A DNA stretch of 59,286 bases. Source: Clostridia bacterium. GTDB lineage: Bacteria > Bacillota > Clostridia > RUG12999. Location of the stretch: assembly GCA_045644605.1 (NCBI GenBank), contig JAZRHB010000068.1, positions 1 to 59,286 on the forward strand, given 5' to 3'. Of the stretch, positions 11,519 to 49,041 are shown one piece after another. Below the pieces are notes generated by a model. That model had not been told where the DNA came from and did not search any database. It saw only the letters and a list, made by a program, of their open reading frames with translations. Within the stretch, counting starts at the first letter, position 1; every line of letters begins with the position of its first letter. The position numbers and the translations under genes were made by a program.

Positions 11519-14500
11519 CTATATATCCATTGTAATCTGGTCGGTTTCGGGAATTCCGTCAAGGCAGTGCTGTTCTTTTAAAAGCGCAATAACCGTTTTG
11601 GAAACCTTACTTCTTTCGCGCAAATCTTCAATACTGAAAAATTCGCCGTCTTTTCTTGCCTCCGCAACAGATTTTGCCGCATTTACACCAAGTCCCGGAA
11701 GTGCCGAAAGTGGCGGCAGAATGCCTTCTTCCGTAGGTATAAACTTGCTAGCGTGGGACTTATACAAATCAATTTTTGTAAACTTCAGTCCCCTTGCATA
11801 CATTTCGTTACACATTTCAAGAATGGTGATAACGTTCTTTTCTTTTGCTGTCGGATTTTCTAAGTTAGTATATTCGTCAAGATGTTTTATTACATTTTCG
11901 TGTTCGCCCGTCATAATAACGGCATCAAATTCGTCCGCACGCACAGTAAAATATGTTGCATAGAATTCTTTCGGATAATTAACTTTATAATACGCAATTC
12001 TAAATGCCATCATAACATATGCCGTAGCATGAGCTTTCGGGAACATATATTTTATTTTTTTACAGGAATCTATGTACCATTCGGGAACGCCCGAATCACG
12101 CATCAGCGTTTCCTGTTCGGGCGAAAGACCTTTACCTTTACGTACGCTTTCCATTATTTTGAACGAGTCTTTTTTCGGAAGTCCCGCATAGATAAGATAA
12201 ACCATAATATCGTCACGCGTACAGATGGCTTCTTTAAGGGTAACTGTGCCGTTCTGTACAAGTTCCTGCGCATTGTTAAGCCAAACGTCCGTACCGTGCG
12301 AAAGTCCTGAAATTCGCACAAGCTCGGCAAATGTGGTCGGCTGTGTATCAACAAGCATTTTACGTACAAACGACGTACCGAATTCGGGGATTCCGTAACT
12401 TCCGACGCTGCTTCTTATAGCTTCCGCTGTAGTACCGAGCGCCTCGGTTGATGTGAAAATACTCATAGTTTTTGGGTCGCCTATTTTAATATCGGTTGCT
12501 TTTGTATTTGTAAGGTCTTCCAGCATTCTTATTACCGTCGGGTCATCATGCCCGAGAATATCAAGCTTGAGAAGTCGTCCTGATATTGAATGGTAATCGA
12601 AATGCGTTGTGATTATATCACTTTCCGTATCGTCTGCCGGATGCTGTACCGGACAGAACATATGTATATCCTCATCTCTCGGCACAACCATGATACCGCC
12701 TGGATGCTGACCAGTAGTACGTTTAACTCCCGTACACCCTTTTACAAGGCGGTCAATTTCCGCCGCTGACGGCATCATTCCACGCTTGTCAAAATATTTT
12801 TTAACAAATCCGTATGCGGTTTTTTCCGCAACAGTACCTATTGTACCCGCACGGAAGGTATAGCCCTTGCCAAACAGCGTTTCCGTATACTGATGGGCAA
12901 CCGGCTGATAATCACCCGAGAAGTTAAGGTCAATATCAGGTTCCTTGTCGCCATCGAAACCAAGGAATGTTTCAAACGGAATATCGTGTCCGTCTTTATT
13001 ATATAATGCACCGCAAACGGGACAGTTTTTGTCCTCCATATCCACGCCTGCGCCGACAGAACCGTCAGTTATAAACTCACTGTGTTTACAATTCGGACAA
13101 ACATAGTGCGGCTGAAGCGCATTAACTTCCGTAATGCCAAGCAGATACGCAACAAACGACGAACCAACCGAACCACGGGAACCAACAAGGTATCCGTCGG
13201 ATAATGATTTGGAAACAAGTCGTTGCGCAATTATATAAAGCACCGAGAACCCGTGTTTTATGATTGAACCAAGCTCTCTGTCCATACGCGCGCGTACAAT
13301 TTCGGGGATTTCTTCGCCGTATATTTCTTTTGCCCGTCCTTCCGAAATTTCAACAATTTCTTCTTCCGCACCATCCATTTTAGGTGTGTGCGGTTCGTCG
13401 GGAAGAAGCATTATATCGTCTACCATATCGGCAATTTTATTGGTATTTTCAACAACAACCTCGTATGCAAGTTCGTCACCAAGATATTTAAATTCATCAA
13501 GCATTTCTTCGGTTGTACGCAGGTATAGCGGTGCCTGAAAATCGGCATCGGAAAAGTCCATTCCGTCCATAAGAATACGGCGGAACACCTCGTCCTGCGG
13601 GTCAAGAAAATGCACGTCACACGTTGCAACCACAAGCTTGCCGAGCTGTTTACCAAGTGCAATAATCTTTCGGTTTATATCGCAAAGTGCTTTTTCGTTT
13701 GCAACTCTGCCGCTGCGCACAAGAAATTCGTTATTGCCATTCGGCTGAATTTCAAGATAATCATAAAACTCGGCAATTTTTTCAATTTTTTGTTTTTTCT
13801 CGCCGTTTAAAACTGCGCGGAACAGCTCGCCCTGCTCGCAGGCAGAACCGATTATAAGACCTTCTCTGTATCGGTTTATCAGATCCCTTGAAATAACGGG
13901 ATGTTTATGGAAATTCTTAAGATGCGAATCCGTAATAATATGATACAGATTTTCGAGTCCCTGTTTGTTTTTTGCGAGTACGATTATATGATAATCCTTT
14001 TTCTTACCGCCATCCGCCGCAAGGTCGGTGTTTATGCGGTCAAGCGCAGTTACACCTTTTTCGCGGAGCATATTAAAGCATACCTTGAGTATTTCGGCGG
14101 TTGCCTCTGCATCATCTACCGCGCGGTGATGATGCTGTAGCTGAATATCAAGCAGTTTTACCATTGCCGCAAGACCGTGTCTTTTTTTATCGGGGAAAAG
14201 AACTCGGCAAAGGTCAAGCGTATCAAGGTAGCAATAGTTAAATTCCGTTTCAAGACGTTCCGCCTGTGCGCGCATAAACCCAACGTCAAAGTTTGCATTA
14301 TGTGCAACAAGCACGCATCCTTCACAGAATTTTTCAAATTCTTTATACACGGTGTCTATCATCGGTGCATCTTTTACCATTGCATCCGTAATGGATGTAA
14401 GCTCGGTAATGTTATCCGGAATATGCATTCCCGGATTTACAAAGCTTGAATATCTTTCTGTAATGTTTCCGTTTTCAACCTTTACCGCACCAACTTCGAT

Positions 14501-45893: not shown

Positions 45894-45982
45894 GCTGGAA
45901 TGGCGGAACTGGCAGACGCACAGGACTTAAAATCCTGCGGGATTTAACCCCCGTACCGGTTCGATTCCGGTTTCCAGCACCA
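45894..45982 (+). tRNA. tRNA-Leu (anticodon UAA), type II with a long variable arm, CCA encoded
   Basis: Acceptor GCTGGAA/TTCCAGC, anticodon arm CAGGA-CTTAAAA-TCCTG, T-arm ACCGG-TTCGATT-CCGGT. Confidence 0.93.
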
Positions 45983-45997
45983 CTACGAATTCAATAT

Positions 45998-46074
<77 letters not shown>

Positions 46075-46270: not shown

Positions 46271-46322
46271 GTCGGGCACCGCAACCCGATAGGAGCCCAT
46301 TCAAATCCGGCCCCGTGAGCCA
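46271..46322 (+). pseudogene. Direct partial copy of the tRNA-fMet 3' two-thirds
   Basis: gtcggg-caccgcaa-cccga...ttcaaatccggcccc-gtgagcca aligns with 46024-46074. The anticodon loop is destroyed and there is no 5' half. Confidence 0.6.
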
Positions 46323-46357
46323 AAATGAAAAAGGCAGATGCAAGCATCTGCCTTTTT
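46323..46357. terminator. Copy 2 of the duplicated terminator; also ends the convergent acyl-CoA synthetase gene
   Basis: ccaaaatgaaaaaggcagatgc is identical to 46072-46093. The stem is GGCAGATGC/GCATCTGCC with A and T tracts on both sides. Confidence 0.75.
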
Positions 46358-46366
46358 CATTTTTTA

Positions 46367-48670
46367 TTACTGTCCTACTTTTTTAAGGTCGTTATTTCTG
46401 ATTTCCACACGTCTTACTTTACCGCTGATTGTTTTTGGAAGTTCATCCACAAAATCAACAATTCTCGGGTATTTATAAGGCGCGGTATGTGTTTTAACAT
46501 ATTCCTGAATTTCTTTTTTAAGTTCATCTGTACCGTTTGTTCCTTTAGTAAGAACAATTGTTGCTTTTACAATCTGTCCGCGGACTTCATCGGGAACGGC
46601 TGTGATTGCACATTCAAGAACATACGGAAGTTCCATGATAACGCTTTCAATTTCAAATGGTCCGATACGGTATCCCGATGATTTGATTACATCATCGATA
46701 CGTCCTACATACCAGAGGTAACCATCTTCGTCCATTGTTGCCTGGTCGCCTGTATGGTAGTATCCATCGTACCATACATCTTTTGTTTTTTCATCATCCT
46801 GATAATATCCGGTAAAGAGTCCGCACGGAACATTTTCACTTGTGCGTACACAAATTTCACCGGTATCCCCTATCTGACATTCGTTTCCGTCAGCATCAAG
46901 AAGTACAACATCATAAAGCGGACTTGGTTTACCCATTGAGCCGATTTTTGGCGTTGAACCGACAAAGTTTGCAATTGAAAGTGTTGTTTCTGTCTGTCCG
47001 AAGCCTTCCATAATTTTAAGTCCCGTTGCTTTATAGAACTGATTATAAACTTCGGGGTTAAGTGCTTCGCCCGCAGTTGTTGCATATTCAATAGAAGAAA
47101 GGTCGTATTTTGACAAATCTTCTTTTATGAAGAAACGATACATTGTAGGCGGTGCACAGAATGTTGTGATATTATATTTCTTAAAGAGCGGCAGAATATC
47201 ATCCGGATGGAAGCGGTCGAAATCGTATGTGAAAACTCCCGCTTCGCAAAGCCACTGACCGTAAAGCTTACCCCAGAGTGCTTTACCCCAACCAGTATCA
47301 GAAATTGTGAAATGAAGTCCGTCCGGATTTACGTTGTGCCAGTGTTTTGCAGTCGGATAATGACCGAGTGCATATTTATATGAATGTGTTGCGATACGCG
47401 GATATCCTGTTGTACCGGAGGTGAACAGCATAAGCATCGGATCATTTCCGCACGGAGTATTTTCGGCACGATCAAAATGAGTGCTGAAACGTTCCATTTC
47501 AACATTGTAATTGTACCAGCCTTCTTTTTCGCCGCCAACAAGGATTTTAAGCATATCCGGGAATGCTGCTGCCGCTTTTTCCGCTTCGGCAGAAACATCG
47601 CCATCAGCAGTACATACAATTGCTTTTACGCCTGCCGCTTTGTATCTGTATTCAAAATCGTGTTCAACAAGCTGATTTGTTGCAGGAATTGCAATTGCAC
47701 CGATTTTATGAAGTGCAAGCATACAGAACCAGAACTGGTAATGACGTTTGAGCACAAGCATAACCGTGTCGCCTTTTTTGATTCCGAGCGATTCAAAATA
47801 GTTTGCTGTTTTTGCAGAATATTTTTTCATATCGCTGAATGTAAATCGGCGGTCGGTTTTATCGTTTGCAACCCACAGCATAGCAGTTTTATCGGGTGTT
47901 TTCTTTGCAATAGCGTCTACGCAATCAAATGCAAAATTGAACTTATCATCATTTTTAAATGTAATTCCGTTAAATACGCCATTTTCATCATATGTTGATG
48001 TGATAAAATCATCCGCAACTGTTTTTGATGTTTTCTTCTCAGCCAGTTTCACTTTTTCCACAACATACGGTGTTTCGGGATATTCTTCGCTGAAATGTCC
48101 GTCCTGCGGATTAAGTACAACGGCGTGGAATTCACATCCGTCTTCACTTGCGGCAATCATTCCGTGTGGGATGATACTGTTATAGAAAATTGAATCTCCT
48201 TCGTTAAGGATATCAACATGATTACCTATCTGTACTTTGAGTGAACCTTTAACAATAACGTCAAATTCCTGACCGTTATGAGATGCAAGCTTAATAGGTG
48301 CATTCTGTTCTTCTTCGATATAAGGGAATTTAACAAGAAACGGTTCTGCAAGCTTGCCTTTGAATTTTGGTGCAAGGTTGTTATAAACAGCGCCCTGTTT
48401 TTTAAGAATTTTGATACCTTCGCCTTTTCTGGTGATGTTAAAGGCTGTAAGGGTTGTGCTTGTTCCTTCAAGAAGGTCAACAACTTCAACACCGCACGCT
48501 TTGGCGCATTTGTAAATGAATGTGAATGTAAAATCCGTTTCGCCTTCTTCAAGAACTTTGTAGTCCTCTACCGATACTCCCGTAAGTTTTGCAAGCTCTT
48601 CGGGAGTATAGCCTTTTGCTTCGCGCAGGTCTTTGATTCTTCCTGCAACCTCTTTCAAATTGTAGTCCAT
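46367..48670 (-). CDS. Fusion protein: XRE HTH, cupin, and medium-chain-type acyl-CoA synthetase (ANL superfamily)
   Basis: HTH LREAKGYTPEELAKLTGVSVEDY. Cupin GQEFDVIVKGSL...GDSIFYNSIIPHG. ANL motifs TSGTTGYPR, DTGWGKALWG, YYHTGD, GRIDDVIKSSGYRIGPFEIES, PKTISGKVRR. Confidence 0.85.
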   Translation of the reverse strand: MDYNLKEVAGRIKDLREAKGYTPEELAKLTGVSVEDYKVLEEGETDFTFTFIYKCAKACGVEVVDLLEGTSTTLTAFNITRKGEGIKILKKQGAVYNNLAPKFKGKLAEPFLVKFPYIEEEQNAPIKLASHNGQEFDVIVKGSLKVQIGNHVDILNEGDSIFYNSIIPHGMIAASEDGCEFHAVVLNPQDGHFSEEYPETPYVVEKVKLAEKKTSKTVADDFITSTYDENGVFNGITFKNDDKFNFAFDCVDAIAKKTPDKTAMLWVANDKTDRRFTFSDMKKYSAKTANYFESLGIKKGDTVMLVLKRHYQFWFCMLALHKIGAIAIPATNQLVEHDFEYRYKAAGVKAIVCTADGDVSAEAEKAAAAFPDMLKILVGGEKEGWYNYNVEMERFSTHFDRAENTPCGNDPMLMLFTSGTTGYPRIATHSYKYALGHYPTAKHWHNVNPDGLHFTISDTGWGKALWGKLYGQWLCEAGVFTYDFDRFHPDDILPLFKKYNITTFCAPPTMYRFFIKEDLSKYDLSSIEYATTAGEALNPEVYNQFYKATGLKIMEGFGQTETTLSIANFVGSTPKIGSMGKPSPLYDVVLLDADGNECQIGDTGEICVRTSENVPCGLFTGYYQDDEKTKDVWYDGYYHTGDQATMDEDGYLWYVGRIDDVIKSSGYRIGPFEIESVIMELPYVLECAITAVPDEVRGQIVKATIVLTKGTNGTDELKKEIQEYVKTHTAPYKYPRIVDFVDELPKTISGKVRRVEIRNNDLKKVGQ

Positions 48671-48724
48671 ATTTTTTGCTCCTTTCTTTTCCGCCGCGTA
48701 TTTTTACGCCGACACGGATTTGAA

Positions 48725-49006
48725 TAAAACAAAAAACCCGCCTCAAATTTTGAGACGGGTTGTAATCAACTCGCGGTACCACTCAAATTGCGAATATAAA
48801 AATTCGCCACTTACCAGGCTCTATCAAGCCCTTGCTTTAACGCAGCTTTACGGAAGGAGTCTACTTGGCTTCTCGCTTTTCGGTCCTCCAACTCAGAAGT
48901 GATGGGTCATTGGAAAGCTTCCCCATTGGCTTGCACCAACCGCCAACTCTCTTTAGGTTTCACACTCCGACCGTCTTCGTCATAGTTGTTTTGTGATATT
49001 CAAATT
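48725..49006 (-). promoter_or_regulatory. T-box riboswitch leader (candidate specifier AUC, Ile)
   Basis: Stem I at 48973-48881 with an AGAGAG bay and a GGUUGGUGCAA distal loop. Stem III at 48807-48790. T-box core AAUUUGAGUGGUACCGCGAG at 48789-48770. The antiterminator competes with the terminator. Confidence 0.85.
48731..48762 (-). terminator. T-box expression-platform terminator
   Basis: AACCCGUCUCAAA/UUUGAGGCGGGUU followed by UUUUUU. Its 5' arm (CUCAAA) pairs alternatively with the T-box UUUGAG. Confidence 0.85.
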
Positions 49007-49012
49007 ACTATC

Positions 49013-49041
49013 ATTATACTCGCTTATTTTTTATTTGTCAA
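49013..49041 (-). promoter_or_regulatory. Consensus sigma-A promoter driving the T-box leader
   Basis: Minus strand: TTGACA (49041-49036), 17-nt spacer, TATAAT (49018-49013). Confidence 0.75.

Follow-up and report, generated by a model that had tools for sequence, protein, structure and literature searches.

Why should a leader RNA of the kind that senses uncharged tRNA stand in front of a gene for an acyl-CoA synthetase? The question is raised by a locus on the minus strand of contig JAZRHB010000068.1 (Clostridia bacterium, GenBank assembly GCA_045644605.1), of which positions 1–59,286 were analysed; this whole stretch of 59,286 nucleotides is called the window below. A first-pass annotation, made from the sequence alone, had noticed a T-box riboswitch with a probable isoleucine specifier at 48725–49041, ahead of an acyl-CoA synthetase fusion. 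Through a comparison of the locus with its close and distant relatives, we propose that it is probably a canonical class-I transcriptional T-box for tRNA-Ile (anticodon GAU), which controls a stand-alone short branched-chain acyl-CoA synthetase serving isoleucine salvage. Two things have to be asked in turn: which amino acid the leader reports, and what a synthetase of this kind could contribute to its supply.

The T-box leader and its specifier codon

When the whole window was run through cmscan against Rfam, RF00230 gave one match, at 48992–48748 on the minus strand, which scored 100.2 bits against a gathering score of 93 (E = 6.3e-21) and is complete, extending over model positions 1–219. 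The first-pass annotation had called the T-box complete, and folding and covariation agree with the model match on this point. Its positions for the promoter, AG bulge, distal loop, T-box core, antiterminator and terminator were also right. Stem I, which it had put at 48973–48881, actually lies at 48986–48891, and the helix below the codon is GAAG/CUUC rather than GGAG/CUUC. The parts that it named are all there; Stem II, the Stem IIA/B element and an extra covarying hairpin had gone unlisted. The elements are given here in the order of transcription.

49013–49041 (−): sigma-70 promoter TTGACA-17-TATAAT (−35 at 49041–49036, −10 at 49018–49013), 12 of 12 consensus positions
48748–48992 (−): full-length T-box leader RNA, from the RF00230 cmscan match and covariation in 75 leaders
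48891–48986 (−): Stem I, with K-turn (UGA...GA), helix GAAG/CUUC, specifier loop, AG bulge and distal loop, from the model alignment
48978–48975 with 48899–48896 (−): helix GAAG/CUUC below the specifier codon, from the model alignment
48952–48947 (−): AG bulge AGAGAG of Stem I, from the model alignment
48941–48931 (−): Stem I distal loop GGUUGGUGCAA, from the model alignment
48900–48903 (−): specifier AUC (48903–48901, Ile) and conserved 3′ purine A (48900), from the model alignment and orthologs
48888–48854 (−): Stem II, from the model alignment; covariation helices 6 and 7, together with Stem IIA/B
48852–48841 (−): Stem IIA/B element, from the model alignment; covariation helices 6 and 7, together with Stem II
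48816–48831, approximately (−): extra linker hairpin GGGCUU...AGCC(U), outside the Rfam consensus, from RNAalifold with compensatory changes
48790–48807 (−): Stem III, from the model alignment; covariation helix 8
48749–48787 (−): antiterminator with the T-box bulge UGGUACC (48781–48775), from the model alignment and folding
48729–48761 (−): intrinsic terminator, a 12-bp stem (48761–48735) followed by a U-tract, from the terminator scan, folding and RNAalifold

The promoter at 49041–49013 is the sole perfect match to TTGACA-17-TATAAT within the 3.5 kb scanned for promoters and terminators, and most orthologous leaders also have a TTGACA/TATAAT-like pair. At the other end of the leader, the T-box sequence AAUUUGAGUGGUACCGCG carries the bulge UGGUACC. 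Folding of this region with the 3′ strand of the terminator left out reproduced the predicted antiterminator, UUUGAG(UGGUACC)GCG...CGUCUCAAA, with its 7-nt bulge at −8.9 kcal/mol, and the 3′ domain folded alone gave the terminator at −22.5 kcal/mol (z −3.9). The two structures compete for CGUCUCAAA and are mutually exclusive, the terminator being the more stable one. By base complementarity, the UGGU of the bulge is predicted to pair with a tRNA that ends in ACCA and so has A as its discriminator base, which is the one expected for tRNA-Ile. The upper helix of the antiterminator (48770–48774 with 48755–48759, minus strand) holds an A·C opposition (GCGAG/CCCGU) in the window and about ten other leaders and a G·U pair (GCGGG/CUCGU) in most leaders, an isosteric wobble exchange; on the 3′ side of the terminator stem, G/A covaries with this C/U column.

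For a comparison set of close relatives, GTDB contigs, one genome per species, were scanned with the downstream protein; more than 580 stretches matched, and the best 80 were used. Their proteins are 86–93% identical, and all 80 come from metagenome-assembled genomes, nearly all sampled from animal gut or faeces, with genome labels that include Clostridia, Oscillospiraceae, Acutalibacteraceae and Ructibacterium. The T-box element is present far beyond chance: its core TGGTACCGCG lies 87–155 nt 5′ of the ATG in 73 of the 76 close loci whose sequence reaches 140 nt or more upstream.

The Rfam structure of the window leader was then mapped onto 75 aligned leaders, with slid 3′ partners and 500 shuffles as controls. 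Standard pairs fill 93.9% of the cells against 35–48% in the slid controls, 19 of 47 pairs change on both sides against 6–11 in controls, and the observed pairing values were reached by none of the 500 shuffles. Covariation in Stem I is found in helices 1–5 (pair 62/76, for example, is CG in 38 leaders, GC in 28 and UA in 8), and six of the seven pairs of Stem III vary on both sides, the first being AU in 41 and GC in 34. RNAalifold independently gave Stem I, Stem II, Stem III, the extra hairpin and the terminator (278–288 paired to 303–313), with compensatory change in 29 of 61 pairs; in the extra hairpin, 194–199 pair with 205–211 (GC:50, GU:16, AU:8 and similar). Minimum free energy (MFE) folding of Stem I by itself missed the T-box fold and gave a z-score without significance, so that the structural claim is carried by the covariance model and the covariation counts. 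Given the model match, the conservation and the covariation, the T-box is real, conserved and under structural selection.

Which codon does it display? In the covariance-model alignment, AUC and the following A close the specifier loop on its 3′ side, in agreement with the first-pass annotation (48903–48900). ATC occupies the specifier position in all 78 close leaders that were inspected, 58 by pattern and 20 by eye. The three bases 5′ of it vary (CCC, CTT, CCT, TCT, GCT), and the base 3′ of it is A, apart from one leader with G and four divergent ones with C. The helix under the codon covaries, being GAAG/CUUC in 56 leaders and GAGG/CCUC in 19. AUC is also found in six leaders of more distant paralogs of the isoleucine type, which are described below. 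From this alignment evidence we read the codon of the leader as that for isoleucine.

The regulated synthetase and its paralogs in distant relatives

The transcription unit behind the leader comprises the following features.

48679–48684 (−): ribosome-binding site AAGGAG, 8 nt ahead of the ATG, from the sequence; GAAAGGAG is kept in nearly all leaders
46367–48670 (−): regulated gene, 767 aa, an Ile-type MACS short branched-chain acyl-CoA synthetase fusion, from domains and homology
46322–46363 (no strand assigned): palindromic bidirectional terminator right after the stop codon, a 19-bp stem with T-runs on both sides, from the scan

Since the terminator directly follows the stop codon and the next genes, for tRNA-Met and tRNA-Leu, are on the opposite strand, the synthetase unit is monocistronic. 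Between the leader and the ribosome-binding site, at about 48716–48691 (−), a variable hairpin is enclosed by CCG...CGG (CCGUGUCGGCGUAAAAAUACGCGGCGG in the window, CCGCATATGCGG in the closest relative); its inner sequences differ among loci, which suggests a conserved structure in the read-through 5′ untranslated region.

Domain and homology searches bore out the first-pass assignment of the target as a MACS/MbcS-like acyl-CoA synthetase and showed it to be fused to a helix-turn-helix (HTH) and cupin region. The protein consists of HTH_3 (residues 12–65; 37.2 bits, cutoff 23), Cupin_2 (127–184; 34.0 bits, cutoff 27.2), AMP-binding (253–623) and AMP-binding_C (673–751), the two N-terminal domains both being above their Pfam cutoffs. 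Its best solved relative is MacsMa of Methanosarcina acetivorans (PDB 3etc; E = 1.6e-203, 56% identity over 523 aligned residues). MacsMa prefers 2-methylbutyrate, and its acyl pocket is formed by a Gly in place of the Acs Trp together with an alternate Trp259 (PMC10455477). Both features are kept in the window protein, as the Gly in GFGQTE and as Trp466, which corresponds to Trp259; the catalytic motifs TSGTTG, GFGQTE, YHTGD and PKTISGK are intact in it and in both groups of paralogs. MbcS of Staphylococcus aureus activates 2-methylbutyrate and isobutyrate (PMC10026030). Judged from these resemblances, the substrate of the enzyme is most likely 2-methylbutyrate. In public data the protein belongs to a 90%-identity cluster of 375 members, with a neighbouring cluster of 1874, in which it goes by the names 'AMP-binding protein', 'helix-turn-helix domain-containing protein' and 'acetyl-CoA synthetase'.

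A set of distant relatives was assembled starting from the N-terminal 240 residues, with a profile-free search of 1.84 billion representative proteins, which returned further full-length HTH-cupin-synthetase fusions at 35–47% N-terminal identity. One of them, P0144 (53% overall identity to the window protein), served as the query that, with genomic contexts, led to nine loci (L081–L089); these represent eight distinct genomic places from different samples, L081 and L082 sharing their gene order. The distant paralogs lie within an identity range of 53–65%. Specifiers were read from covariance-model alignments and a helix-anchored pattern.

Eight of the nine loci hold 17 T-boxes found by cmscan, every one of which has the TGGTACC/UGGU bulge. 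The fusion occurs there in tandem copies, and the copies are divided between two amino acids: the first stands behind an AUC (Ile) T-box in all six clusters concerned (L081, L083, L084, L086, L087 and L088), and the second behind a Val T-box in all eight (GUA in L083–L089, GUC in L081). In five of these eight clusters (L083, L084, L086, L087 and L088) the genes after the Val copy are a CbiA-like gene, a 4Fe-4S ferredoxin of 68 aa and the three subunits of a 2-oxoacid:ferredoxin oxidoreductase (OFOR); in the five gene tables, neighbours either overlap or are spaced by at most 52 nt. A class-IV aminotransferase (Aminotran_4) comes next in L083, L084 and L087. L083 is the sole cluster in which the OFOR alpha subunit and the aminotransferase were scored against NCBIfam. 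There, the former passes the cutoff for VorB (3-methyl-2-oxobutanoate dehydrogenase, ferredoxin) with 540 against 399 bits, and the latter that for the branched-chain aminotransferase IlvE with 485 against 307 bits. Clusters of a Val copy with VOR and IlvE support a conversion of branched acids to branched-chain amino acids (BCAAs) by reductive carboxylation.

The enzymes, as judged from their alignment, track the specifiers. At 13 alignment positions the 12 Ile-type proteins are split from the 8 Val-type ones with zero exceptions, and the window protein is of the Ile type at all 13. Four of the positions fall in segments lining the acyl pocket of Acs-family enzymes. One, in DTGW[G/A]K, precedes the pocket Trp by four residues, and there the Ile type and MacsMa have Gly and the Val type has Ala; three directly follow GFGQTE (T/S, L/M and A/G). 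A smaller pocket for a smaller acid, isobutyrate, would be a reasonable reading of the Val type.

Two further elements of the distant clusters are listed with their positions.

L083 7325–7987; L084 7305–7970; L086 9337–9996; L087 9299–9964; L088 9296–9952: CbiA-like gene, about 220 aa
L086 12743–12989; L087 15235–15472; L088 12662–12912: Leu (CUC) T-boxes, 113–125 bits

The CbiA-like gene is always placed between the Val-type synthetase and the ferredoxin/VOR genes; its matches to Pfam CbiA/ParA are weak or faint, and no NCBIfam family was found for it at E 1e-25. It could encode an Fe-S cluster or maturation factor for VOR. The CUC T-box of L086–L088 precedes a LeuA-like gene of 459 aa (HMGL-like and LeuA_dimer domains, under every NCBIfam LeuA cutoff) and then a CoA ligase fusion of about 840 aa, in which AMP-binding is joined to AP_endonuc_2, a xylose-isomerase-like TIM barrel. 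This fusion ligase may activate isovalerate. Right after the IlvE gene of L087, at 13702–13772 (+), there is a sub-threshold match to the Gut-1 small RNA (RF01706, 47.6 bits against a gathering score of 50).

The surroundings of the gene in the window are of another kind. Its neighbours are ABC exporters, a MarR-type regulator, a thioredoxin reductase, PFK, an MnmL/YtqA-type radical SAM tRNA-modification protein, SigH and tRNAs. They were considered as operon partners and rejected, having no BCAA link and being separated by terminators on both sides of the unit. The tRNA-Leu(UAA)/tRNA-Met(CAU) pair adjoins the gene only in the window (45894–46074, +) and in the closest relative, L001 (6895–7076, −). 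Across the 80 close loci, the only recurrent synteny is with the LeuA-like gene (13–17 loci) and the AP_endonuc_2/AMP-binding fusion (18 loci), both of which, in 13–18 close loci, sit upstream of the Ile unit. Because the flanking genes differ in the remaining loci, the T-box and its gene appear to move as a self-contained cassette.

Proposed isoleucine salvage and the competing explanations

How would the leader and the enzyme work together? In the following scheme four things are inferred: that tRNA-Ile is sensed, which acid is used, which way the flux runs, and that this genome has VOR and IlvE. Transcription would start at the consensus promoter. As long as tRNA-Ile is mostly charged, the terminator at 48761–48735 should form and the transcript should stop short of the gene. 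When uncharged tRNA-Ile accumulates, its anticodon would pair with the AUC in Stem I, and its free ACCA end would, with the UGGU bulge, stabilise the otherwise weaker antiterminator, so that RNA polymerase could enter the gene. The enzyme would then turn an exogenous branched short-chain acid, most likely 2-methylbutyrate, into its CoA thioester, which a VOR-type OFOR would reductively carboxylate to 2-oxo-3-methylvalerate, and a branched-chain aminotransferase would convert the latter to isoleucine. Reductive carboxylation of 2-methylbutyrate to isoleucine belongs to the classical rumen literature. It is likewise an accepted route in rumen organisms (PMC2812497). The first-pass annotation had offered such a logic as plausible, and the pattern of paralogs, specifiers and clusters in the distant relatives raises it from plausible to supported. 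Its comparative part, with tandem paralogs, VOR and IlvE, stands in the relatives; near the gene of the window there is neither VOR nor IlvE.

Several observations weigh against isoleucine salvage as the role of this locus. A tblastn search of the 59-kb window, and of the 80 close genomes up to 4 kb from the gene, turned up no VOR, no IlvE and no second paralog, so that the pathway partners are presumptive in the clade of the window. No tRNA-Ile gene occurs in the window or in 60 related loci. The specifier loop of Stem I has a 4-nt deletion in the model alignment, with the AGUA half of the S-turn gone. The best NCBIfam model of the enzyme, MbcS (NF047394), scores 454 bits and does not reach its equivalog cutoff of 850, so the protein reads as a relative of MbcS and not as an MbcS equivalog, and a substrate preference cannot be read off from 56% identity to MacsMa. 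Pairwise identities of the Ile and Val types overlap, and the two copies of L083 are 71% identical to each other. Finally, the HTH-cupin domain has no role in the scheme.

This last point calls for a closer look at two conserved boxes that frame the leader, for which such a domain could have a use.

48993–49006 (−): conserved box AATTTGAATATCAC, about 7 nt past the −10 (about +1), outside the Rfam model, from conservation
48718–48726 (−): post-terminator box UAUUCAAAU, just past the U-tract, the reverse complement of AUUUGAAUA (core of the 5′ box)

The exact 14-mer AATTTGAATATCAC is present in 55 of the 80 close loci; each of these has a single copy, which invariably lies in the leader, and the window has one exact copy. 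At up to 3 mismatches the window holds 17 matches, with 15.5 expected by chance, and the box is not present in the distant leaders L081–L089; it was accordingly rejected as the operator of a regulon. The post-terminator box is kept in most close leaders, with A-to-G variants, and both boxes fit TTTG-N7-CAAA. The paired boxes may act as an operator to which the HTH domain of the protein itself binds, or as the two strands of a long-range RNA helix. For the RNA helix, the A-to-G variants opposite U fit, and only 9–11 mostly A-U pairs would form; no true compensatory change between the two boxes was found in the close leaders. The HTH-cupin domain may add a second, DNA-level control.

That the protein is mainly a transcription factor is a stronger form of the same idea. 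The HTH-cupin part would bind DNA, for example at AATTTGAATATCAC, the adenylate-forming domain would act as the sensor, and the T-box would set the level of the regulator. BirA is a precedent for such a trigger enzyme. Both HTH_3 and Cupin_2 pass their Pfam cutoffs, and the architecture is like that of stand-alone HTH-cupin regulators, which the N-terminal 230 residues weakly resemble (PDB 1y9q, E = 5e-5). The 14-nt box near +1, identical in 55 of 80 species and with an inverted partial copy past the terminator, would suit a DNA-binding protein. A distant HTH-cupin-synthetase fusion, P0165 (758 aa, 41% identical to the window protein), has kept the HTH-cupin part without the P-loop and the catalytic Lys: it reads QSYSYGMAK for the P-loop FTSGTTGYPR, GYGLAET for GFGQTET and PKDANGV for PKTISGK, looks catalytically dead and may be purely regulatory. 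The catalytic motifs, however, are all intact in the window protein, as they are in the two groups of paralogs; the box is missing from the distant leaders despite the same fusion, its copies in the window do not exceed chance, and the predicted DNA binding would supplement an enzymatic role, not replace it. We consider a mainly regulatory protein improbable. An alternative that keeps the enzyme but changes its product is that the T-box-induced synthetase spares isoleucine for lipids, supplying 2-methylbutyryl-CoA as the primer of anteiso fatty acids from exogenous 2-methylbutyrate and not from isoleucine catabolism. MbcS is indeed the best NCBIfam match, MbcS of S. aureus channels 2-methylbutyrate and isobutyrate into FabH-primed fatty-acid synthesis (PMC10026030, PMC11167679), and the gene in the clade of the window is alone, with no VOR or IlvE nearby. 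On the other hand, the VOR-type subunits that follow the Val paralog in five relatives, with IlvE too in three of them, point to amino-acid synthesis; T-boxes are known mainly ahead of genes that restore tRNA charging (PMC3766115, PMC2494555), and no linked fab genes were seen at any locus examined. A lipid purpose is unlikely on this evidence, and the two roles are compatible in any case, as one acyl-CoA could serve both.

It might also be asked whether the specifier has been misread, or whether another tRNA or several are sensed, for instance through a shifted frame or through the AUG (Met) in CCAAUGACC, which the first-pass annotation had kept as a weaker alternative. The atypical specifier loop with its missing AGUA motif would allow for this, and the main text of TBDB (PMC7778990) describes alternative frames as possible in some T-boxes. 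Against it, the G of that AUG aligns in the covariance model with the conserved GA of the specifier loop, and the AAUGAC stretch is lost in L015, L025, L052 and L076 with AUC retained. The shifted triplets vary (xAU with C or U as its first base; UCA, UCG and UCC), only AUC being invariant. The UGGU bulge fits the discriminator A expected of tRNA-Ile, and where the window leader has AUC, the paralogs show clean codons for Val and Leu. AUG was rejected as the specifier on these grounds, and a misread codon is effectively excluded.

We thus hold to isoleucine salvage as the probable role of the T-box and its synthetase. A wider proposal can be built on it, in which the Ile, Val and Leu T-boxes of uncultured gut and rumen Clostridia make up a three-part regulon, the Val part including ferredoxin, VOR and sometimes IlvE and the Leu part the LeuA-like gene with the third CoA ligase, so that a shortage of each amino acid would turn on the salvage of its own acid (2-methylbutyrate, isobutyrate and isovalerate, respectively), and in which the synthetases are also bifunctional, their HTH-cupin part binding the box at the start site. 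Such binding would constitute a second, ligand-dependent layer over the T-box. With all its parts taken jointly, we regard this proposal as doubtful and offer it tentatively.

Significance and comparison with known systems

Since the 1960s it has been known that isobutyrate, 2-methylbutyrate and isovalerate are required or used by many anaerobes of the rumen and gut for making valine, isoleucine and leucine. To our knowledge, the genes that activate the branched short-chain acids, and the regulation of the route, are poorly assigned. The present results offer a genetic basis and a regulatory logic for the long-known ability of gut anaerobes to use branched volatile fatty acids. The specifier codon serves as a built-in functional label that marks a large gene family as linked to Ile or to Val, so that a very large uncharacterised protein family gains an annotation, and the linkage to VOR and IlvE supplies the rest of the pathway. 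T-box biology is not overturned; its regulon is extended to a class of precursor-salvage enzymes, and a possible fusion of enzyme and regulator is pointed to. These findings are relevant to the nitrogen economy of ruminants and to what becomes of branched short-chain acids in the gut.

The first-pass annotation knew of no description of this wiring, and the literature on T-box regulons gave no mention of it. In the accessible text of the surveys, the targets are aminoacyl-tRNA synthetases, biosynthesis genes, transporters and a few regulators (PMC2494555, PMC3766115, PMC7778990), and no T-box-linked acyl-CoA synthetase appears in the main text and supplements of Wels 2008 and Sun 2013 or in the main text of TBDB. 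No link in the literature was found between T-boxes and acyl-CoA synthetases, CoA ligases or ferredoxin oxidoreductases, a passing mention in Vitreschak 2008 or Gutierrez-Preciado 2009 being possible. Nor do the words 'T-box' and 'CodY' occur in the text of the S. aureus MbcS paper (PMC10026030).

The leader is closest to the Ile T-box leaders of ileS and ilv-leu operons in Firmicutes (RF00230), with which it shares the domain order, the UGGN-bulge antiterminator opposed by a terminator, the AUC codon with the usual C in its third position and the logic by which uncharged tRNA turns on a gene that should restore charging. Unlike them, it controls an HTH-cupin acyl-CoA synthetase, neither an aminoacyl-tRNA synthetase nor a classical ilv/leu gene nor a transporter, and it lacks the AGUA half of the S-turn and has an extra linker hairpin and the 14-nt 5′ box. 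On the side of the enzyme, the likeness to MacsMa comprises the 56% identity over the catalytic domain, the pocket Gly and Trp (Trp259/Trp466) and the motifs YHTGD and PKTISGK, whereas the window protein is bacterial, T-box-controlled and longer by about 240 N-terminal residues (HTH_3, Cupin_2 and a linker). MbcS of S. aureus, the best-scoring family (NF047394, 454 bits), activates exogenous 2-methylbutyrate and isobutyrate, but it has no HTH-cupin part and serves fatty-acid priming, and the match is far under the cutoff of 850. A DNA-binding domain is combined with an enzyme in the trigger enzymes BirA, PutA and NadR as well, that of BirA being adenylate-forming; here the combination is a predicted one of an XRE HTH with a cupin, and the resemblance is one of architecture.

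The pathway itself has its counterpart in the reductive carboxylation route of rumen and gut anaerobes and methanogens, which runs from acyl-CoA through VOR to a transaminase. The same set of enzymes, namely acyl-CoA synthetase, ferredoxin, three VOR-type subunits and, in three cases, IlvE, is found in the co-directional cluster of the relatives. Unlike in the known route, three T-boxes (Ile, Val and Leu) partition these genes, and neither T-box control nor CoA synthetases dedicated to single amino acids were found assigned to the route in the literature. The RNA is thus an ordinary member of RF00230, and both its switch and the logic of restoring charging are already familiar. What is new, as far as our literature search shows, is the use of this switch for the salvage of precursors, through CoA synthetases that are dedicated, paralogous and fused to a regulator.

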